From the IMG/VR virus record IMGVR_UViG_3300023119_001136, positions 54,084 through 74,083 of that record: 20,000 bases of DNA; one strand, 5' to 3'. The position numbers and the translations under genes are program-made. Under the pieces are notes generated by a model, which had not been told where the DNA came from, ran no database searches, and was given only the letters and a program-made list of their open reading frames with translations. The DNA is from an uncultured virus (IMG/VR IMGVR_UViG_3300023119_001136) (lineage: Duplodnaviria; Heunggongvirae; Uroviricota; Caudoviricetes). Positions 10,495 to 20,000 of the stretch are shown here, piece by piece. The stretch's first letter is position 1. Every line of letters begins with the position of its first letter.

Positions 10495-13400
10495 TTAGAA
10501 AGTACCACCATCTATAGTATCTGTCCAAACTGGTGTAGCATCTGCGTCACTAGTTACTGTAAGTATTTGGAAACTGTTGCTTGCGTCTGCTGTGCCTGCG
10601 GCATCAGTAACTTGTACAGGATCTGCTGTGTTTCCATATAGTATACCGTTTTCAGTAAATGTGCTTGCTCCAGTACCACCATATTGTACTTCAAGATCAC
10701 TAGTTAAAATAAGCGTTCCGATGTCAGCGTTTACAACAGTTATTTTATTATTAACTGCATCAATAATTTCAGTACTATCGTCTGCAAAAATACTACCAGT
10801 AAATCCTGCCGCATCAAGTATACCATCTACAACTAAGTTTGTTGTAAATGTTGAATTTAGTTCGCTGATTCTAAATTTTTCAGTTAGCAATCCATTATGC
10901 ATGGTGCTAATAATCATATCAAAGTCTTCACCACCGCCTGTTACATCTGTGCTAACAACATCAACTTGTGCTGCTGTTTCAAAGTTGTTTAGGAATGTTT
11001 CTAACTCGAACTTCATACCAGTACCAGCACCAGAAGTAATTGCACCAGTGGTAGTATGGTGTGCAAGTGTTAACGGATATACAATATCATCTGCTGCGCT
11101 ATCAGGTGCATCTGTAATAAGTCTAATTGTATCTGGAGCATAAACAGTTTCGCCTCTAATTGTAAGTGTGCTTGTTCCTAAATGACCAATTTGAATATCA
11201 CCGCCTATTGTGCCACCGACATATAAGTTGCCACCTATACCCATGCCGCCTGTAACAACAACTGCTCCGCTTTCAGTACTTCTTGATTGTGTATCACTGT
11301 TAATTGTAATATCAACAGACTCGTCAACATCCAATTCACTTGCATTCAAATACATTCTCTTTGAACCGTCGGCGTAAAATTCTAACGTATCTTCGTCTGT
11401 TCCTGGGCCAGTTTCTGGTCTAATAAATGTATCTTGGTCAGCATCAATAGTACCAACTAATGAACTCCAGTTTACACCATTGTAGCCTTCATAAAACTGT
11501 AAGTCTGTATTAAAGCGTACTTGACCAATTACTGGTACAGACGGACGAGCACTTGTGTCTCCTACCGGAACTTGAATACTCTTGTCACTATCAATAATAA
11601 CAAAGTCGTTGTTAATCGTCAAAGTACCAGTATCTGCACCAATAACAATTGTAGTCGCTTCGCCCATTGCATTAACTGTTGTTACTGTTGTGTTTAGTAA
11701 GTTTACAGTTAATGAATCAGTTGTAACATTGGTAGTAGGATTTTCTCCTAATTTGATATCATCTTTAACAACTAGGCTGTTATTAATAGTTGTTGTACCA
11801 ATCAAATCACCAATGTTAATGTTTGCAGCGCCGCCCGCAAAGTTAACGGTATTAGCATTATCGTTAACTAGATTAAACTCACTTGCAGTAGTTGTCAAGT
11901 CTCCGCCATCGACTGCAATGTCTAGTTCAAAAGTAACATCGCCTTCAACTGTGCCACCCGTGATTTTATTTAGATAGTTGTTGCTTAGGAATTGTACCAC
12001 AGCATTTTGTGTAGGTACAGTATTAATATCTGCTGTACCTGTACTTGCTATAAGATTTGTATTGTCACTAACTTCTTTTAATTCAACACCAACTGGAATA
12101 CCAAATCTTTGGAAAGGACCAATGCTTGCAATACCTGTTAAATCAATTTGGTTAGCATTAAGTGTAATAGCACCTGTAAGTGCGTTAACTGCAAAGAAAT
12201 TACCAACTCTAAAGTTACCAATTTGGTCAACAGTACCACCTGCAAACACTTTACCAGTATTAGACTCGACAATTTCGTTTTCAGCAATCGGTGAACCGCC
12301 AAAGAATGGAAGTGCGTTATAGGTAATACCTGCACCAACATATTCAAATGCATGACCTGAAGTTGACACAGTACTTACACGCTGCATGTTACCTAGTGTT
12401 CCCTTTGTTACTGATAGAACACCTGGGAATAATGTAAGTTCTGCAACACCACCATATTCTAAGTTTAATAATCTAATTGCTTCATCTTCAATGTCTTGTG
12501 CTTTAAACATGATCAATTGTCTGTCAGCATAGTCTGCCATAGATGCTAAACCTGCATAATTATGATCTTGTTCAATAGGAAGATATACTGTGTTTCCTGT
12601 TTCAGCAATTACAGTAGTTTCAATAACTTCGGCAATTTTAGATACAAGCGTTTTTAGAATCAATCCTGCTGCTGCACTACCATTTGTACCATCTGTTTCT
12701 TGTAGTAATGTAGGTGTACCACTAGGTGTAATATCTATGTTTTGTGCAACATCGCTTAAAACTCTTGCTAGATGCTTATATGTAAATTCGGTAATATCTT
12801 GTTGGTCTGCATTACCTTCTGATGCTGCACTTAAAATTGTGCCGCTGTAATAAGCTTCTGCTGCTCTGCGAGTTTGTTTGTTACCACCATACATCATATC
12901 ATAAACTGCTGCATCAATAATGTAGTTTGTATCTCTTTTACACTTTTCTACATTATATCTAAAGCCAATGATATTTTGAGTAATATAATCAATTACTTGC
13001 TGCTGATATGTTGTGCTATTTGTAAGGACATTATCTGCTGCTTCTACAAGACTGCTACTGATCCAACTGTAATCTGGATCAGTATTTTGAGGAGTAGTAC
13101 CTAGTCCTAAACTGTCTGTAATAGCAAGGATTAAAATATTATAAAGATCATTTGCAACTTCACTTTCTGTTGAAGTGCCAAATGTTCCGCTTAAATCTTG
13201 TGTTTCACCGTTTCCAGGTTGTACAGCAATTGGAACACCTTCAATGATACTAACACTAATATCTCTCAAGTGTTCAATAGCATCAGCAGTTTGAAACTCT
13301 TGTCCAACAATAGTAGAAACACCGTCATCAAAATATGCTCTAGTGCTTACTAGTATACTTCTGTTTCCGCCGTATAGCATATCATGTGACACACTGTCAA

Positions 13401-16400
13401 TAATGTATTCACTGTCTCTACGACATTTTGCTTCGTCGTAACTCAAACCATTTAAACTTGTGTTAATATAATCAATTACACTTTGTACAAGATCTGATTG
13501 AGAACTGTCGCCGCTTGCTAAAATTAAATCTCTTGAGTTTGTTAAGTTAGAAGCAACCCAAGTTAAATCGGGCTCATAAAGAGATGGAAGATTTTCTGTG
13601 CTTTCTTCTTGTAACACATCAACAATATAAGTTACTAAGCCTGCCAATTCATCCATTTCTGCTGAACTTGCTGGATTACCTGTAAGCGTTTGTCCTGCTC
13701 TGTTTTCTATAATTATATCGTCAGCAATATCAATTAATTGTTGGTATGCAGCAATTGTTTCGTCTTTTTGTGATGCAGGAATTTGCGATGCAGTTCCTTC
13801 AAAATACGCTAATGCTGCTGTTCTTGTTGCAAAGTTTGTACCGTATTGTATGTCATGCGATACAGCATCAATGATATATCCTGTGTCTCTTTCGCACTTT
13901 GCTTGATCGTAAACTAAAGTTGGGAAACTTAAATTGATCCAAGCAATTAATTCACTAATAATGAACGTTCTGTTACTTTGTAATAGTGTTCTAGCATATG
14001 CTTTATTAACATCTGATCCAGGATCAGTAAATGTTAATGGATCAGCACTAAGGACACCATTTTGTAAAATATCAATAATTTCATCAAACAAGTCATTACA
14101 TGCTGTTACGCTTGCACTATCTGCCGCAACAAGTGTTGCTACTTCTGTTCTTAGATATGTGATTGCTGCAACAGTTTCTGTTAATTGATCACTGATTACT
14201 AAAGAAGCATTTGCATTATAATATGCCAGTCCTGCTTGTACACTGTTATAATTTGTACCTAGAACTAAGTCATAAGTTACAGCATCTAGAATTAAAGCAG
14301 TATCTCTTGCACATTTTGCACTGTCATAAACAAAATAGTTGTTAGCAATATACTTAATTGTATCTTCAACTAGGAAATCTCTGTTTGCTTGTAATAATCT
14401 ATTTGCATCAATTAATTCTTGGCTTGCAGGTGTTGGTGCAGGGAATGTTCTACCTTCACTAGGCAATGCAGTTTGTGCGCCAAAGCCGCCATCTGGAACA
14501 GTAGTTAAGGTTTGATCTGCAAATTCGATTAAGTTTAGAATAATATCAAATCTGTCATTTACTCTTTCAACTGCAACACTGCTACCTGCTGCGCCTGCTG
14601 CTGCTAGTGTTTTTAAATATCTAATTGAAATAATAGTTGCAGGTTTTTGTGCAACATCAAAATATGTTGCTGTTGCTCTTTGATATGCTTGTCCTGCTTG
14701 AATACTATTGTGATTTGTGCCTAGTTTAACATCTCTTACAACAGCATCTAAAATAAGTTCTACATCTCTTTTACACTTTGTTCTATCATATGTAAAGTTT
14801 GGATATGTTGTAAGCAAATAACTTGTAATATTAGTTGCAAAATTATCTTGTGCTGCAAACAATGAACTTCTTGCTGCTTGCACATCTGCTGCTGCCCAAA
14901 TAACACTTGGATATTGTACTTCAGGTAAGTTTGTCAATGCACCTGTGTTAATTACTTCAATAATAATATCAATATAATCGTCTGCACGTTCTGCTTCAAC
15001 ACCTGTTGCATTTGCTGCTGATGTATCTTGTACTAACAAGTTACCAGTAGATCTAAATACTGGATCTCCTTGCAAAATCTGTGTTGTAATTTCTTTTAAT
15101 CTGCCATATGCTGCAATAGTAGCAGTAGTTTCGTCTGCTCCTAATTGACTTGCTGTTCCTACAAAATACGCTTGTGCTACGTCCCTAGTTGCATAGTTAC
15201 CGCCATATAAGATATCGTAAACTAATCCGTCAACAATGTGACCTACATCTTTATAACATGCATCTTGATCATAATCTAATGAAGGATAGTTTTCGTCTAC
15301 CCATTTAACTATTTCTTCTTGAATAAAGTCTTTGTTGTTAACAAGTTGATCTCTTGCATTTTCTCTTGCTGCAATAACACCCGTCGGTGAAGGATATGTG
15401 TAATCGTCTGCACTTGTGCTATCACCTCTCGAAAGGATTTCGATAATCTCATCCATTGCATTGTTTACTCTGCTTGTAGCAGTTGAACTTGCTACAACAT
15501 TAGGTAAAGCAAGCATTAGTGTTTTTAGATATTGGTATGCTGCAATAGTTTGTACTTTTTGTTTTTGGTATACAACACTTGCATTTGCACGAGCATATGC
15601 TCTACCTGCTGTAACACTTGAATAGTTTGTTCCTAAAGCAGTATCATATGCAACCGCAGTTGTAATTTGCCTAACATCTCTTTCGCACTTATCTTGATCA
15701 TATGAAAGATCTGTAAATTGGTCTGAAATATAATTTACAACTTCGTCAATAATAAAGTCTTTATTTTGAACAATATTATCTTTTGCAGCAATTACACCGC
15801 TGTCAATATTTGTAAGTTCGTTATAAACTACATCCGGTACCGCAGTACTATCGCCTTGTGTAATTGTATTTGTAATAATTGCAAAGTTTTCAATTATGTT
15901 ATATCTATAGTCTATGTTAGCAGGATCTGTATCAGGAACACATTTTAGCATTTCGTCTCTTGCTGCTTCAATACCATATATTGTAGGTGCTAACTGTTGG
16001 TTAAGAACTTTTTGTGATGTTGCACGAAGATAACTTCTGCCTGCATTAATACTTTGATAGTTTGTGCCAAGTGCAGAATCTCCTGATACTGCATCAATAA
16101 TTCTTTGTATATCTCTTCTACAAATTGTTTCATCATAAATGAATGGTCGTGTTGTAATTTCAGATGAAGTTACATAATATCTTGTTTCATCGCCTTCAAA
16201 CGTTATAATAGAACCTGTCTGTGGAATATCACGTAAACTATCTACTTCAACTATTCTGTTTGTAATTAAGTTTACAGTACCTGTTGCAGGAACACTAAAC
16301 CCACCGCCTGTAAATGTAATGTTAGGTATAAAATCATATCCACTACCCTGATTACTAATACTTACAGCAACAACTTTACCTGTTGCAGGATCAATACTTG

Positions 16401-17481
16401 CATTGCCTGTTGCTTGTACACCGCCTGGCGTAGTAGGAGGATCAATAGTTACAGAAGGTGCATTTGTATAGCCAGCACCTTGGTTATTAATAGTCACACT
16501 ACCAACAACAGAATAATAGTCTTGTGTAGGTCTAGCAGTTGTAAATACTTTCTCAAATAATCCATCAGCAATAATTGCATAAGTACCAAAGTCACTAACA
16601 GAGTTCGAGATCGAAAGATACCCGCCTGCGGTTGCTTGGAAACCAACTCTTGTAAAAACTGAGAAGCAACTAACAATCTGTGTATATCCTTCATTAAGTA
16701 GCCAAAAGCCAATACCACCTTGTGCAACTTGTGTAAACGCATCAGCAACAAAGGATCGTACAAGACTTCTCTGATCGTAGGCGGCACCGTCAACTTTCAT
16801 ACCGTTGCCGCCACCGTTGTCGTTTACACGTTTTTCAAGCGGTACATTAGGATCATCTATAATTGGTCTAGCACCTGCCGGTACACCTGGAATTTGTTCT
16901 GTTTGAAAAGGAACAAATTCAGTACCGTCGTTTAACCACGGACCATTCATGTTTGTACAGTTTTGTACATATGGTGAAACAGTTACAAGTGCACCTGGTC
17001 TAATTTCTGCACACCAACCTGGATCTGCTAATCCTCTAAATGTAAGTTGAAACAAGTAACATGCACAATCCATATAAAAAATTGTTTCAGTATTATTGAG
17101 CGGCCAAATTTGACAGTTACGTAAACTATCACCTCTAACAGTCATACGTTCTTTTAACGTAATCGGATTATCTTCGTAATAGTCTCCTGGTGCAACTTTA
17201 ATAGTTGATCCTGCTGGTGCTGCTTCAACAGCAGATTTAACTGTTCGTTTTGCACGATCAGGTCCTTGACCTAATCCATCATTTTCGTCACTACCTTGTA
17301 ATGACACATAATAGATTAGTGTATCAGTAGGACCACTTGAACTACCTGTAACTTTTAGATCACCGTTAATTTCAACAGTGCCGCTACCCGGATTAAGTTC
17401 AATTGTACCGTCACCTTTAATTATAAGTTGACGGTCTCCTATTTTCCTGTCGTGTAATATCTGCTGCTTTACATACTTCAT
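10495..17481 (-). CDS. 2328-aa giant virion structural protein with a split pectin-lyase-like beta-helix and eight tandem alpha-helical CxRD repeats; ends in IDGGTF
   Basis: Uninterrupted 7-kb ORF whose ATG abuts the upstream TAA (TAAATG, translational coupling). Shares many motifs with the 3367-aa protein and contains eight YDxxKCxRD-type repeats. Confidence 0.9.
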   Translation of the reverse strand: MKYVKQQILHDRKIGDRQLIIKGDGTIELNPGSGTVEINGDLKVTGSSSGPTDTLIYYVSLQGSDENDGLGQGPDRAKRTVKSAVEAAPAGSTIKVAPGDYYEDNPITLKERMTVRGDSLRNCQIWPLNNTETIFYMDCACYLFQLTFRGLADPGWCAEIRPGALVTVSPYVQNCTNMNGPWLNDGTEFVPFQTEQIPGVPAGARPIIDDPNVPLEKRVNDNGGGNGMKVDGAAYDQRSLVRSFVADAFTQVAQGGIGFWLLNEGYTQIVSCFSVFTRVGFQATAGGYLSISNSVSDFGTYAIIADGLFEKVFTTARPTQDYYSVVGSVTINNQGAGYTNAPSVTIDPPTTPGGVQATGNASIDPATGKVVAVSISNQGSGYDFIPNITFTGGGFSVPATGTVNLITNRIVEVDSLRDIPQTGSIITFEGDETRYYVTSSEITTRPFIYDETICRRDIQRIIDAVSGDSALGTNYQSINAGRSYLRATSQKVLNQQLAPTIYGIEAARDEMLKCVPDTDPANIDYRYNIIENFAIITNTITQGDSTAVPDVVYNELTNIDSGVIAAKDNIVQNKDFIIDEVVNYISDQFTDLSYDQDKCERDVRQITTAVAYDTALGTNYSSVTAGRAYARANASVVYQKQKVQTIAAYQYLKTLMLALPNVVASSTATSRVNNAMDEIIEILSRGDSTSADDYTYPSPTGVIAARENARDQLVNNKDFIQEEIVKWVDENYPSLDYDQDACYKDVGHIVDGLVYDILYGGNYATRDVAQAYFVGTASQLGADETTATIAAYGRLKEITTQILQGDPVFRSTGNLLVQDTSAANATGVEAERADDYIDIIIEVINTGALTNLPEVQYPSVIWAAADVQAARSSLFAAQDNFATNITSYLLTTYPNFTYDRTKCKRDVELILDAVVRDVKLGTNHNSIQAGQAYQRATATYFDVAQKPATIISIRYLKTLAAAGAAGSSVAVERVNDRFDIILNLIEFADQTLTTVPDGGFGAQTALPSEGRTFPAPTPASQELIDANRLLQANRDFLVEDTIKYIANNYFVYDSAKCARDTALILDAVTYDLVLGTNYNSVQAGLAYYNANASLVISDQLTETVAAITYLRTEVATLVAADSASVTACNDLFDEIIDILQNGVLSADPLTFTDPGSDVNKAYARTLLQSNRTFIISELIAWINLSFPTLVYDQAKCERDTGYIIDAVSHDIQYGTNFATRTAALAYFEGTASQIPASQKDETIAAYQQLIDIADDIIIENRAGQTLTGNPASSAEMDELAGLVTYIVDVLQEESTENLPSLYEPDLTWVASNLTNSRDLILASGDSSQSDLVQSVIDYINTSLNGLSYDEAKCRRDSEYIIDSVSHDMLYGGNRSILVSTRAYFDDGVSTIVGQEFQTADAIEHLRDISVSIIEGVPIAVQPGNGETQDLSGTFGTSTESEVANDLYNILILAITDSLGLGTTPQNTDPDYSWISSSLVEAADNVLTNSTTYQQQVIDYITQNIIGFRYNVEKCKRDTNYIIDAAVYDMMYGGNKQTRRAAEAYYSGTILSAASEGNADQQDITEFTYKHLARVLSDVAQNIDITPSGTPTLLQETDGTNGSAAAGLILKTLVSKIAEVIETTVIAETGNTVYLPIEQDHNYAGLASMADYADRQLIMFKAQDIEDEAIRLLNLEYGGVAELTLFPGVLSVTKGTLGNMQRVSTVSTSGHAFEYVGAGITYNALPFFGGSPIAENEIVESNTGKVFAGGTVDQIGNFRVGNFFAVNALTGAITLNANQIDLTGIASIGPFQRFGIPVGVELKEVSDNTNLIASTGTADINTVPTQNAVVQFLSNNYLNKITGGTVEGDVTFELDIAVDGGDLTTTASEFNLVNDNANTVNFAGGAANINIGDLIGTTTINNSLVVKDDIKLGENPTTNVTTDSLTVNLLNTTVTTVNAMGEATTIVIGADTGTLTINNDFVIIDSDKSIQVPVGDTSARPSVPVIGQVRFNTDLQFYEGYNGVNWSSLVGTIDADQDTFIRPETGPGTDEDTLEFYADGSKRMYLNASELDVDESVDITINSDTQSRSTESGAVVVTGGMGIGGNLYVGGTIGGDIQIGHLGTSTLTIRGETVYAPDTIRLITDAPDSAADDIVYPLTLAHHTTTGAITSGAGTGMKFELETFLNNFETAAQVDVVSTDVTGGGEDFDMIISTMHNGLLTEKFRISELNSTFTTNLVVDGILDAAGFTGSIFADDSTEIIDAVNNKITVVNADIGTLILTSDLEVQYGGTGASTFTENGILYGNTADPVQVTDAAGTADASNSFQILTVTSDADATPVWTDTIDGGTF
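12470..16150 (-). repeat. Eight tandem ~140-160-aa protein repeats, consensus YDxxKCxRDxxxIxDAVx(Y/H)DxxxG(T/G)NxxS/TxxAxxAY
   Basis: Cys codons at 16122, 15687, 15258, 14775, 14313, 13896, 13425 and 12942 (C454, C599, C742, C903, C1057, C1196, C1353, C1514). Spacings are 145, 143, 161, 154, 139, 157 and 161 aa. Confidence 0.9.
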
Positions 17482-17823: not shown

Positions 17824-19149
17824 TTAAAAAATAATACTATAAAGCAGAGCTTTATTCCTGCTTATTAATTCGTCTTGTGTACCTAATTCGTTTATAAAAT
17901 ATAAACCTGTGCCGCCATCAGCTTCGTCTTTTGCATATATCTTTGTACCATCAGTAGGTGGTGTATCTTCTGTATCAGTTAGTGCAGGATCTATTAATTT
18001 AGGAAACAACATAGGTGTTAGTACTTGTACATCACCTAAATTATTACCTGATAATTTCAAATCACTATCAAGTCCAGATGCTGAAATGGTATTTTCATCT
18101 ATGGTAACCAATGCAATTTCTGCAGATGTTTCATAAAAGTATGCAATTTCACTACCGTCTACAGTAATTCTAACATTACTTAGAGATGTAACACCATCTA
18201 GTGTACTAAATGCTTCAACTTTTGTTGTTCCATCTGGTTCAACAGCATTAATTCTATATTGCCAATTATATTTGTGATAATCTCTAACATAATCTTTTAA
18301 GAACTGCAAATTAGGAATAGCATCTGGTTCATACCCTGGCCAATCTGCTCCTGACAATCTGTTAGAATTTGTAGGAACATTTTTTATTTCACTGCCGTCG
18401 TATTCAGCAAGGCGTTTTTCATAATCAAGTGTGCCTGATACAGAAACAACGCCGCCTAAATTGGATCCTGGTAACAAGTTAAGATCATTACCATCTTCAG
18501 TTTTAATGCTGCTTGTATAGATACCTAAGTATCCTGAACCTTCTAAACCAAACTTAAATGCACCTGCATTTGCTTCTAACACACCGTTAGTGTATGACAA
18601 TAAGTTTTCATCGTAAAACATAACAGCATTTGGCAATGTGCCTCTGTCCATTATGATACCAGAAATTTCATCGCCACCAATACCAGTTGCAATTACTCTT
18701 TGTATATTACCATCACTTATGTATGCAATAAACCCTGATGTATCTACAGGAGTAGTTAATGCAAAGTCTGCAAATAATTCAACTGTAGTAGGATCAACAA
18801 CATTTACATAGTAAGTGTTATTGTTTAATTCTACCATTCCTAAAACATTAGTAATAATTACTTCGCTACCATCAGTAAAACTGTGAGCATCTGATAATTC
18901 TACTTGTGCTGGGTTTGCTTGTGTTATACCAACAATGTCGTATAGTGTATTAGATTGATTGTTTAGTGTTAGTGTTTTATCACTTACAATTAATTCAGAC
19001 GAAGTAATCGAAGTTTGAGAGCCGTTGACATCTAAATCACCATTGATAACAACAGTGCCGGAACCTACATTAATTTCAATAGTTCCGCCATCGTTAATTG
19101 TTAACTTATAATCGTCGACTCCATACTGTTCGATTCTAGACGCTGTCAT
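17824..19149 (-). CDS. 441-aa putative virion structural protein with an FCCH-like (ubiquitin-activating E1 FCCH-type) beta module
   Basis: GGAG SD. Contains GITQANPAQV..SDAHSFTDGSEVIITNVLGMVELNNNTYYV.VVDPTTVELF. Its N-terminal GTIEINVGSGTVVINGDLDVNG resembles the N-terminus of the 2328-aa protein (GTIELNPGSGTVEINGDLKVTG). Confidence 0.85.
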   Translation of the reverse strand: MTASRIEQYGVDDYKLTINDGGTIEINVGSGTVVINGDLDVNGSQTSITSSELIVSDKTLTLNNQSNTLYDIVGITQANPAQVELSDAHSFTDGSEVIITNVLGMVELNNNTYYVNVVDPTTVELFADFALTTPVDTSGFIAYISDGNIQRVIATGIGGDEISGIIMDRGTLPNAVMFYDENLLSYTNGVLEANAGAFKFGLEGSGYLGIYTSSIKTEDGNDLNLLPGSNLGGVVSVSGTLDYEKRLAEYDGSEIKNVPTNSNRLSGADWPGYEPDAIPNLQFLKDYVRDYHKYNWQYRINAVEPDGTTKVEAFSTLDGVTSLSNVRITVDGSEIAYFYETSAEIALVTIDENTISASGLDSDLKLSGNNLGDVQVLTPMLFPKLIDPALTDTEDTPPTDGTKIYAKDEADGGTGLYFINELGTQDELISRNKALLYSIIF

Positions 19150-19165
19150 TTATATCTCCAACTTA

Positions 19166-19612
19166 TTACTGTCTTGGTAGAGATACACTTAATACTGCGT
19201 TTGGTACACCTGAATCTTCTCTTGCATCTGGATGATTACCAATTTCGTAGATTACATTGTCTGCTTTGTCACCATCCGGCGGTGTTGCAGTACCTTTTGC
19301 AGTGTTTTCAATTTGCACTGTTCTGTTACGAAGTTGTGTTACTTGATAAACTGTTGAATCAGAACCTGTTGCATCAATTCTAAATGTACCTTCTGGCATA
19401 CTTCCGTTGCCTTCTGTTGTTAATTTTAGAATTTCACCTGCTGTTGGATCTGCATTATCACTATCTAAGCGTACCCAGAATTGATTAGCACCTTTTACTT
19501 TGTAAATGTGTGCTGCTGTGGTTGCTTCTGAACCACCTGTAAAATAGTGACGGCTTACAGCAATTCTACCTGAACCGTATCCTATTTTTGATTTATTAAT
19601 TGGACGTCCCAT
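19166..19612 (-). CDS. 148-aa hypothetical phage protein (MGRPINK...), first gene of the late transcription unit
   Basis: Strong AAGGAG SD, tandem TAA TAA stop, located downstream of the late-promoter motif. Confidence 0.85.
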   Translation of the reverse strand: MGRPINKSKIGYGSGRIAVSRHYFTGGSEATTAAHIYKVKGANQFWVRLDSDNADPTAGEILKLTTEGNGSMPEGTFRIDATGSDSTVYQVTQLRNRTVQIENTAKGTATPPDGDKADNVIYEIGNHPDAREDSGVPNAVLSVSLPRQ

Positions 19613-19693
19613 TTGTTTCTCCTTTTTGACGTTCTAAGTCTACGCGGTTGGTCTTCCGCATAAGTCCTCATCTAGAGGCTCTCCTCTTGACAC

Positions 19694-19704
19694 AAGTATT
19701 TATC
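19694..19704 (-). promoter_or_regulatory. T4-like late-promoter motif GATAAATACTT upstream of the 148-aa gene
   Basis: Identical to 10461-10471. Intergenic and just downstream of a terminator. Confidence 0.75.
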
Positions 19705-19733
19705 CAAAAGATTAAAATGGGTTATTATGTCAT

Positions 19734-19763
19734 AAAAAAAGGCCTGCAATTATGTTGCAGACC
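19734..19763 (-). terminator. Rho-independent terminator: GGUCUGCAA-CAUAA-UUGCAGGCC followed by U7
   Basis: 9-bp stem (one G:U on the minus-strand RNA), 5-nt loop and seven U. A T4 tract on the plus side may make it weakly bidirectional. Confidence 0.85.
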
Positions 19764-19777
19764 TTTTCTATAATATT

Positions 19778-19986
19778 GATAGGTTGGACTACTGATTACC
19801 AACAACCGCACTATGCCCCATCAGGCTCAAAACAGCACGGAACCTCACAATAGAATGGTTAATCCTACTTTTCCTGCAATGCTTTGTCTCCAAAGTCTTA
19901 CAGCGCCACCACAGCGTGTGAGTCAAGTTAATGCCTGGGTAAGCATCGTTTCCTTGCACTATCTAACTTGGACCGTCGTCTTCGTT
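19778..19986 (-). ncRNA. Candidate ~200-nt structured non-coding RNA with a multi-stem fold and pseudoknot, possibly related to the manA RNA motif of marine phages
   Basis: No ORF in the track and higher GC than the flanks. At least eight complementary helices are found by eye, including a GAGA (GNRA) tetraloop, with many G:U pairs that work only on the minus strand. It is flanked by a -10-like TATTAT (19998-19993) and its own terminator. Confidence 0.7.
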
Positions 19987-20000
19987 ATGTTTATAATATA

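Follow-up and report, generated by a model that had tools for sequence, protein, structure and literature searches.

A divergent manA-family RNA with promoter and terminator signals in a clade of uncultivated phages

The window analysed here, a stretch of 20,000 nucleotides, is the final 20 kb of a 74-kb viral contig (IMG/VR record IMGVR_UViG_3300023119_001136), and its position 20000 coincides with the end of that contig. Close to this end the minus strand carries, in the direction of transcription, the -10 box of a sigma70-type promoter, a compact structured RNA, a putative intrinsic terminator and the leader of a gene encoding a 148-residue protein (Table 1). An earlier note, made from the sequence letters, had singled out the RNA as a free-standing, pseudoknotted molecule possibly resembling the manA motif; its coordinates and sequences were correct on re-reading of the window. 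The element belongs, as a divergent member, to the known manA family and is not a new kind of RNA; its most probable product is a free transcript. RNA nucleotides are numbered from 19988 on the minus strand, so that index i stands for window position 19989 - i.

A divergent clade of the manA family

In the E-value mode of Rfam, the manA model RF01745 matched positions 19986-19773 over its full length (model positions 1-192 of 192) with a score of 50.7 bits and an E-value of 4e-12. The gathering mode yielded no match in the whole window, manA being seen in E-value mode only; the RF01745 gathering score of 55.2 bits is an operational threshold and not a structural feature. It is exceeded by relatives of the window copy, namely L106 (59.0 bits), L031 (58.0 bits), L082 (56.7 bits) and L008 (55.6 bits), the last of which is the best match among 15 loci that share the downstream 148-residue gene; at E <= 0.001, RF01745 was found at the same site in eight of these loci. 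The alignment to model positions 1-192 reproduces the manA helix plan, with P1, the closing helix P2, P3, the P4 junction bearing P5-P7, P8 and P9, and the conserved manA bases are present: GACG in L1, GUG after P2, GUGGUG in L5, ACCA in L7, and UG together with GGUA..A.UCC in P9. The guess of a manA-like RNA was thus borne out, and with it fell the implied novelty of the RNA, as manA has been a known family since 2010, for which cryo-EM structures now exist. ARAGORN detected neither a tRNA nor a tmRNA in the window.

To place the window copy among its relatives, a 16-base core word of the element was followed and found in at least 120 viral contigs. A recognisable full element was present in 84 of the 120 matches listed, corresponding to 57 distinct versions; the other 36 listed loci were dropped before counting for want of the 3' closing motif and represent chance matches within coding sequence (L030, L032, L091), elements cut by a contig end, or loci fetched without flanks. 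A covariance model built from 59 clade sequences (denoted R1) gave 177-240 bits for clade members and 17-43 bits for canonical manA RNAs, 30 of which it recovered. With RF01745, nine of nine canonical copies scored 133-197 bits, and three of 11 clade copies exceeded the gathering score (56.7-59.0 bits). The clade is clearly manA by fold, yet it sits astride the curated cut-off of Rfam, and default annotation misses most of it. A blastn search of window positions 19600-20000 against 50,697 deposited phage genomes gave no match. RF01745 likewise had no match at E <= 0.1 in Vibrio phage 2.275.O and Sinorhizobium phage Phosso, the isolates nearest by capsid protein; control genomes were equally empty, and absence from these two phages is accordingly not shown.

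The DNA upstream of the window is supplied by L006, a 256-kb contig that is identical across the element. There, a Gp23-type major capsid gene (PF07068, 290.8 bits) is followed by a 70-residue open reading frame (ORF) and then by the promoter. The capsid protein shares 79% identity with that of Sinorhizobium phage Phosso (469 kb), 74% with that of Vibrio phage 2.275.O (349 kb) and 70% with those of PA5oct-type phages. Because CheckV puts the completeness of the 74-kb and 256-kb contigs at 21% and 72%, respectively, and because of the genome sizes of the capsid relatives, we estimate a genome of roughly 350 kb for the carrier, which would make it an uncultivated jumbo phage; its capsid gene is of the T4 type. 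Other carriers whose manA copy is flanked by a major capsid gene look like phages of the same type, also of ~350 kb. In three of the four large clade contigs checked, manA is present once. Among 11 clade copies scanned at other genomic sites, six lie in or at the head of tRNA arrays, with tRNA genes at most a few hundred bases away.

Table 1. Features at the manA locus and its downstream neighbour (window coordinates)
Feature	Position	Strand	Basis
-10 box TATATT of a sigma70-type promoter	19995..20000	-	window sequence; the -35 element TTGACA lies just past the window end
manA-family RNA core, P1 through the 3' strand of closing helix P2	19778..19988	-	RF01745; own model R1, 199.5 bits; covariation
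P1 hairpin (UAAC/GUUA and GAC/GUC, GACG loop)	19964..19987	-	pairing and double changes in relatives
L5 loop UGGU, pairs with L7	19908..19911	-	covariation; SS_cons_1 of the 2010 seed
L7 loop ACCA, pairs with L5	19856..19859	-	covariation; SS_cons_1 of the 2010 seed
L6 GAGA tetraloop (GNRA type), caps P6	19887..19890	-	alignment of 59 relatives
L8 loop CUGA, pairs with L9	19821..19824	-	covariation; SS_cons_2 of the 2010 seed
L9 loop UCAG, pairs with L8	19792..19795	-	covariation; SS_cons_2 of the 2010 seed
Putative intrinsic terminator GGUCUGCAA-CAUAA-UUGCAGGCC, extended by A/U pairs, then U7	19734..19767	-	minimum-free-energy and centroid folds
GATAAATACT box, T4-late-promoter-like, heading the leader of the next gene; neighbour, outside the RNA	19695..19704	-	exact match
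Freshwater-2-type leader (RF02980) with Shine-Dalgarno sequence and ATG of the 148-residue gene; neighbour	19610..19680	-	46.5 bits, E 5e-6

Covariation of the fold and of two loop-loop contacts

The minus-strand RNA 19998-19734 has a predicted minimum free energy (MFE) of -82.9 kcal/mol, compared with -65.4 +/- 4.6 kcal/mol for 200 dinucleotide shuffles (z = -3.8), none of which was as low. This comparison had been suggested as a check in the earlier note, as had covariation among homologues, which was assessed on two alignments. A1, made with MAFFT from 59 sequences, was fitted to no structure; A3 comprises 86 sequences including 27 canonical manA RNAs and was fitted to the model, and hence favours the structure. 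On A1, 87.0% of the cells of the whole structure were paired versus 77.0 +/- 0.3% in shuffles (0 of 500 as high), and control registers in which the partner was slid by 1-3 columns gave 33-45%. The corresponding values on A3 were 88.5% and 66.4%, with changes on both sides in 54 of 58 pairs. Compensatory changes are accordingly seen on both alignments. Two outcomes named in the earlier note as refuting the RNA, missing covariation and a folding energy no better than that of shuffles, did not occur.

Covariation on A1 is strong in P3b, P6 (9 of 11 pairs changed on both sides) and P9. P2 is invariant within the clade as GAUAG/CUAUC and reads GGGAG/CUCCC in canonical manA, a clean double exchange at two positions; P3a, in which CUUG pairs with CAAG at 19956-19953, is also invariant. 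The tetraloop L6 is GAGA in 58 of the 59 relatives on A1 and GUGA in L024. P4 is CUCAC/GUGAG in the window and CUAGU/GCUAG in most other members. When sequences were folded singly, 43 of 59 adopted the shape [[][][]][] for P4-P8, that is, a three-hairpin junction followed by a hairpin; RNAalifold run on the MAFFT alignment recovered just 35 pairs. Together these data establish the manA core fold of the element, with P1, P2 around P3, P4 with P5-P7, P8 and P9.

Nine of the ten helices named in the earlier note exist and recur in relatives: GAUAG/CUAUC (P2), AUGCUU/AGGCAU (P3b), CUCAC/GUGAG (P4), the CGC/GCG base of P5, both parts of P6, P7, the outer part of P8 and GUUGG/CCAAC (P9). Three inner extensions proposed with them have to be given up, since the bases of U.G/G.U in P5, of the top U-A pair in P7 and of GCCU/GGGC in P8 belong to loop-loop pairings. 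The tenth helix, a pseudoknot between CAAGUUA (19970-19964) and UAACUUG (19930-19924), is complementary in the window but finds no support across relatives: it is paired to 89.3% in the 59 sequences, which is the level of the shuffles, none of its pairs is double-changed, and at six of seven positions it is broken in 3-19 sequences, wherever the 5' strand varies. The 5' strand of the claimed pseudoknot instead forms the covarying hairpin P1, in which UAAC (19987-19984) pairs with GUUA (19967-19964) and GAC (19980-19978) with GUC (19973-19971) below a GACG loop. P1 is paired to 97.6% versus 86.9% in shuffles (0 of 500 as high), six of its seven pairs are double-changed, and in L061, L079 and L106 the stem is wholly replaced with pairing kept.

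The long-range contacts of the RNA are formed by the loop pairs L5-L7 and L8-L9. On A1, their eight pairs are paired to 98.2%, compared with 84.3 +/- 1.1% in shuffles (0 of 500 as high), with 47 double-changed cells versus 11.5 in shuffles; slid controls were paired to 11-62%. L5-L7 is paired to 99.2% in the 59 sequences (pair types AU:42, GC:14, GU:3), with a G-C to A-U exchange in 14 of them, such that the two loops occur as the matched types UGGU/ACCA, seen in the window, or UAGU/ACUA. L8-L9 is paired to 97.0%, and three of its four pairs are double-changed; the clade has CUGA/UCAG, AGGA/UCCU and AUGA/UCAU as matched types, whereas canonical manA has CUGU/ACAG. The L5/L7 types and the L8/L9 types assort independently. 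A third L8/L9 variant picked out by eye, UUAC/GUAA (for example in L025 and L038), was left uncounted, as a match between four-nucleotide loops is too likely by chance. Both pairings are annotated in the 2010 manA seed alignment as SS_cons_1 and SS_cons_2 (PMC2864571, supplementary file 5). We conclude that the two loop-loop pairings are true long-range contacts under selection.

Transcription signals, RNA-library contigs and neighbouring genes

The earlier note had inferred from a -10-like element and a terminator that the RNA is independently transcribed and not cis-regulatory. Both signals are present, and L006 provides the -35 element: its promoter reads TTGACA, a 16-nucleotide spacer and TATATT, with TG before the -10 box, and matches the consensus at 11 of 12 positions, the -10 box being the last six bases of the window. 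A promoter of the form TTGAnn-N15-18-TAnnnT ends 28-32 nucleotides before AGAUAG in 54 of the 57 distinct clade versions, whatever lies upstream, and the three promoter-less versions (L061, L079, L106) directly follow a tRNA. A start 7 +/- 1 nucleotides past the -10 box would leave 0-2 nucleotides ahead of the first base pair of the RNA.

At the other end, the window terminator begins 10 nucleotides after closing helix P2. Its stem (19763-19755 with 19749-19741), loop CAUAA and run of seven U are found in both the MFE and the centroid folds; the hairpin, whose sequence is shared with L086, has -12.5 kcal/mol, the T-run lies 36 nucleotides past P2 and the predicted probability is 0.97. Among 55 versions with at least 120 nucleotides of downstream sequence, a hairpin and T-run occur within 60 nucleotides in 37 and at 61-220 nucleotides in five. 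The 37 proximal terminators comprise 18 distinct hairpin sequences in which the stem is kept. Doubtful cases with about -7.4 kcal/mol are L033, L048 and L129, where stronger hairpins occur ~90-107 nucleotides downstream, and L024 was counted as lacking a terminator although it has a short GGUCUAUUUUGAUAGGCC-U7 hairpin. A consensus scan of L006 did not list the terminator hairpin on the + strand and gave only an inner stem on the other strand; folds were used instead. An alternative hairpin CUAU/AUAG just past P2 was dropped, as it would not touch the terminator.

RNA-library evidence comes from four salt-marsh metatranscriptome runs, all of them assemblies without information on starts, ends, strand or level, in which uncovered parts (runs X9, X12 and X13) carry no meaning. 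Metatranscriptome contigs cover the element. In three of the four runs, a short contig over manA is deeper, by word depth, than contigs of the next gene (98.4 versus 2.6-5.8, 27.7 versus 11.5 and 24.3 versus 3.2). These short contigs derive from close relatives, and contributions of several related phages and DNA carry-over are possible, so that the higher depth is a weak hint of RNA abundance.

The gene beyond the terminator (19612-19166, minus strand) encodes a 148-residue protein with relatives in 15 viral contigs and with no match in Pfam or PHROGs, both of which yielded little on the neighbouring genes. A ATAAATAC box precedes the leader of this gene in all 15 relatives, four of which lack manA. 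The window box, GATAAATACT, resembles the T4 late promoter, TATAAATA, and the three matches of ATAAATACTTNTG within the 74-kb contig all fall on its coding strand. The freshwater-2 leader (RF02980) between this box and the gene scores 46.5 bits against a gathering score of 49.9 bits and exceeds the latter in six relatives. The next gene thus appears to carry a late-promoter-like box and a conserved leader of its own, independent of manA. Together with the conserved promoter, the terminator and the lack of a predicted antiterminator, this bears out, as far as sequence inference goes, the independence from cis-regulation proposed in the earlier note. The position that Rfam gives the family, the 5' untranslated region (UTR) of a protein gene labelled 'Cis-reg', does not apply here, as a terminator and a promoter-like box precede the next ATG.

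Further observations concern this neighbourhood. A second exact GATAAATACT box lies at 10471-10462 (minus strand), 24 nucleotides past the stop of a 2328-residue ORF (10495-17481, minus strand), presumably heading the next gene, and a weak second freshwater-2 copy with the same box is found 32 kb away (contig positions 41693-41772, minus strand). One set of late genes seems to share the freshwater-2 leader with its ATAAATAC box as its usual 5' leader. The genes past the terminator (window 19166-19612, minus strand; loci L021-L100) start with MGRP(I/L/V)(N/K)K and then diverge widely. A 441-residue ORF (17824-19149, minus strand) matches the Pfam ubiquitin-activating-enzyme E1 FCCH domain PF16190 with 34.5 bits (cut-off 29.5), which is odd for a phage structural region.

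A probable free RNA, its alternatives and known systems

The most likely reading of the locus, and one that we consider probable on the strength of its transcription signals, is a free manA-family RNA of ~250 nucleotides with its own promoter and its own terminator. Host-type RNA polymerase would start at the near-consensus sigma70 promoter at about 19989-19987, 0-2 nucleotides before P1, and would stop at the intrinsic terminator, releasing the free RNA; manA would then not be the leader of the 148-residue gene, and a ligand-sensing switch acting on the adjacent gene is probably not what it represents. By analogy with the assemblies seen by cryo-EM, L5-L7 and L8-L9 may join monomers into pentamers, decamers or a 60-mer cage, and a free, abundant, self-associating RNA particle could be a multivalent scaffold or sponge that works in trans. 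We favour a trans-acting particle because the selected loop pairings are the contacts that join manA monomers in the cryo-EM structures. The transcript ends and timing, the oligomerisation of the window copy and any target are inferred.

The structural part of this argument draws on a preprint of 1 July 2026 (bioRxiv 10.64898/2026.07.01.735769), in which manA RNAs form pentamer-based decamers, octamers and a cage of 60 subunits, icosahedral-like and ~430 A in size. The contacts within the pentamer are intermolecular kissing loops, L5-L7' and L8-L9', and a Photobacterium variant combines an L6-P6' GNRA-receptor contact with L5-L7' and L3-L8' (bioRxiv 10.64898/2026.07.01.735769). From the helix numbering, which runs 5' to 3' in both schemes, and from the loop sequences, L5-L7' and L8-L9' correspond to SS_cons_1 and SS_cons_2, respectively. 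In the portions of the preprint consulted, manA is presented as a putative 5'-UTR element, expression or genomic-context data do not appear, and the term 'in vivo' occurs zero times and 'phage' once. The suggestion of a scaffold in the earlier note gains some plausibility from this reported self-assembly.

Several observations weigh against a free, self-associating manA RNA. With regard to family membership, the window copy lies 4.5 bits below the RF01745 gathering score (50.7 versus 55.2), and J2/3-P3 departs from the manA consensus, CAAGGAAACG replacing CUGAAUAA.CUU. Pairing on A1 is low in P4 (69.5%), P7 (63.0%) and P8 (53.6%), because MAFFT sets subgroups one register apart and thereby mis-registers these helices; the values on A3 (74.1% for P4, 70.9% for P7 and 59-79% for P8) suffer from the same mis-registration. 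Covariation is equal for intermolecular and intramolecular loop pairing and cannot tell the two apart, and the cryo-EM assemblies are those of other family members, formed in vitro and described in a preprint, the interfaces of the window RNA being predicted from complementarity and covariation. With regard to the transcription unit, 13 of the 55 clade versions have no terminator within 220 nucleotides, some of them lying directly before a small ORF. Read-through from the capsid operon into the element is possible, because no terminator lies between the upstream 70-residue ORF, whose stop codon is overlapped by the -35 element, and the promoter. In the metatranscriptomes, one run has a single 3.8-kb contig across the whole region, and contigs of runs X9 and X12 start with an Illumina adapter at L006:1146, equivalent to window position 19967, and not at the predicted start. 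This position falls in the 3' strand of P1, 20 nucleotides past the predicted transcript start; it may mark a processed end, a stop of reverse transcription or an assembly artefact. As an additional observation of the same tendency, L031, L082 and L100 have an ORF of ~20 codons with a Shine-Dalgarno sequence and conserved W codons (e.g. MFKTNTICIICWPPGDWGMS) after manA, and past this ORF a strong terminator followed by tRNA genes.

The context of canonical manA copies in viral contigs (n = 28) is mixed. Ten run straight into gene 32 without a terminator, with manA 26-80 nucleotides upstream (L163, L193, L144, L172, L182, L146, L190, L183, L208, L196); the identity of this gene was confirmed for one example, the L163 ORF, by a PF08804 (ssDNA-binding protein) match of 92 bits. 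The leader of gene 32 in T4 itself holds a pseudoknot operator. Leader-type contexts therefore exist elsewhere in the manA family, a further point on the opposing side. Eight canonical copies have a terminator within 80 nucleotides, so the terminated context is not unique to the clade, and the remaining ten have other contexts. Separately, a conserved hairpin GACCUAAGAUGCAACUC...GGGCAGAUGGUC, sometimes with a U-run, follows canonical manA in L183, L208, L196, L155, L210 and L201; Rfam assigned it to no family at gathering score.

Leader copies of this kind also speak for the foremost alternative, a cis-acting attenuator or riboswitch in which manA senses a ligand or protein and sets read-through into the 148-residue and structural genes. 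The family was introduced as a riboswitch candidate in potential 5' UTRs of marine metagenomes, T4-like cyanophages and two gamma-proteobacteria, and was drawn with a 'pseudoknot?' (Weinberg et al. 2010; PMC2864571), and the cis-regulatory label is repeated in the S-CREM1 genome paper and a 2025 review. Moreover, the terminator starts only 10 nucleotides past P2, and the order manA, terminator, MGRP-type gene is kept in at least 26 of the 37 members with a proximal terminator. An attenuator should possess mutually exclusive terminator and antiterminator structures; none was found by thermodynamic prediction in 33 members, in all of which the terminator hairpin formed with p >= 0.95, whether the full transcript or only the last 60 nucleotides of the fold were placed upstream and thus with or without the 5' part of the aptamer. 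As these probabilities are thermodynamic, kinetic, protein-dependent or ligand-dependent read-through could still occur and would tell against the free RNA. The single candidate antiterminator, a match between UUGCAGG in P6 and the 3' arm of the terminator, is lost in L007-L010, whose arms differ. The terminator itself varies among the 18 hairpins, with the T-run 29-60 nucleotides past P2 and further in some, and in four of the 15 relatives the box and leader of the downstream gene are present although manA is absent. We know of no ligand for manA after 16 years, and the literature search on the family turned up no experimental ligand work. On balance we regard an attenuator as unlikely.

A still less likely alternative is that the element is the 3' end of a late capsid-operon mRNA, or a piece of a longer stable-RNA precursor, which is processed or protected. 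The absence of a terminator between the 70-residue ORF and the element would allow it, the promoter-less versions directly after a tRNA speak for it, and the two library contigs that begin at 19967 inside P1 could mark a processed end. Against this, the promoter keeps its fixed distance in 54 of 57 versions and is preceded in several relatives by an upstream terminator; processing and a stand-alone transcript are in any case not exclusive, as a free manA RNA results from either. That the element is a chance structure or encodes a small protein is highly improbable: although a 56-residue ORF (19959-19789) and an antisense open frame of 62 residues overlap the element and open stretches of 40-71 codons occur in relatives, at least 50 codons stay open from the column matching the start of the 56-residue ORF in just four of 59 relatives, which answers the concern of the earlier note that the region might be the 3' part of a coding gene, and the helices change in a compensatory manner under a full-length Rfam match.

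A bolder extension of the free-RNA reading, which we put forward tentatively and rate below an even chance, is that the jumbo-phage clade makes a free, strongly expressed manA that assembles in cells into pentamer-based, RNA-only particles or cages acting in trans. Such particles could serve, for example, as a multivalent sponge or a compartment for a host or phage factor. The classification as a riboswitch-like 5' leader, held for 16 years, would then be wrong at least for this clade, and the selection on L5-L7 and L8-L9 would provide the first indication from nature, as opposed to work in vitro, that the assemblies matter.

Ever since 2010 manA has lacked a known function, and the portions consulted of a 2025 review and of the 2026 preprint still list it as cis-regulatory. 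In the parts of the manA literature consulted we found no description of a separately terminated manA transcription unit. The clade adds a context that is absent from the structural work: a promoter at the first helix, a terminator past the last one, neighbouring genes that do without manA, copies within tRNA arrays, and covariation in the very loops published as holding the oligomers together. With a defined transcript of ~250 nucleotides, a free, self-assembling manA becomes directly testable in vivo; the gain is this context and a testable hypothesis, and not a new class of RNA.

Compared with canonical manA (PMC2864571), the window RNA shares the helix plan P1-P9, the conserved loop and junction bases and the same two loop-loop pairings, and it begins right after a sigma70-type promoter, as do 25 of the 28 canonical copies. 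It differs from canonical cyanophage manA in its RF01745 score (50.7 versus 133-197 bits), in P2 (GAUAG/CUAUC and not GGGAG/CUCCC), in the sequence of J2/3-P3 and in an internal loop in P1; its carrier is apparently a jumbo phage and not a classic cyanomyovirus, and it is followed by a terminator and not by a gene. As in the manA assemblies resolved by cryo-EM, L5-L7 and L8-L9 are complementary here and covary in the clade, and the L6 GNRA loop is present. Looking beyond the family, ROOL, GOLLD, OLE and raiA are stand-alone RNAs of elaborate structure that are often carried by phages or located close to tRNA genes, that form homo-oligomers in cryo-EM and whose function is unknown; they resemble the window RNA as stand-alone structured RNAs, but are much longer and have unrelated folds. 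In Listeria SreA and SreB and Enterococcus EutX, an aptamer-like fold followed by a terminator gives rise to a free, trans-acting small RNA. The window RNA has the same arrangement of aptamer-like fold and terminator, whereas known ligands and targets are found only on the side of SreA, SreB and EutX.

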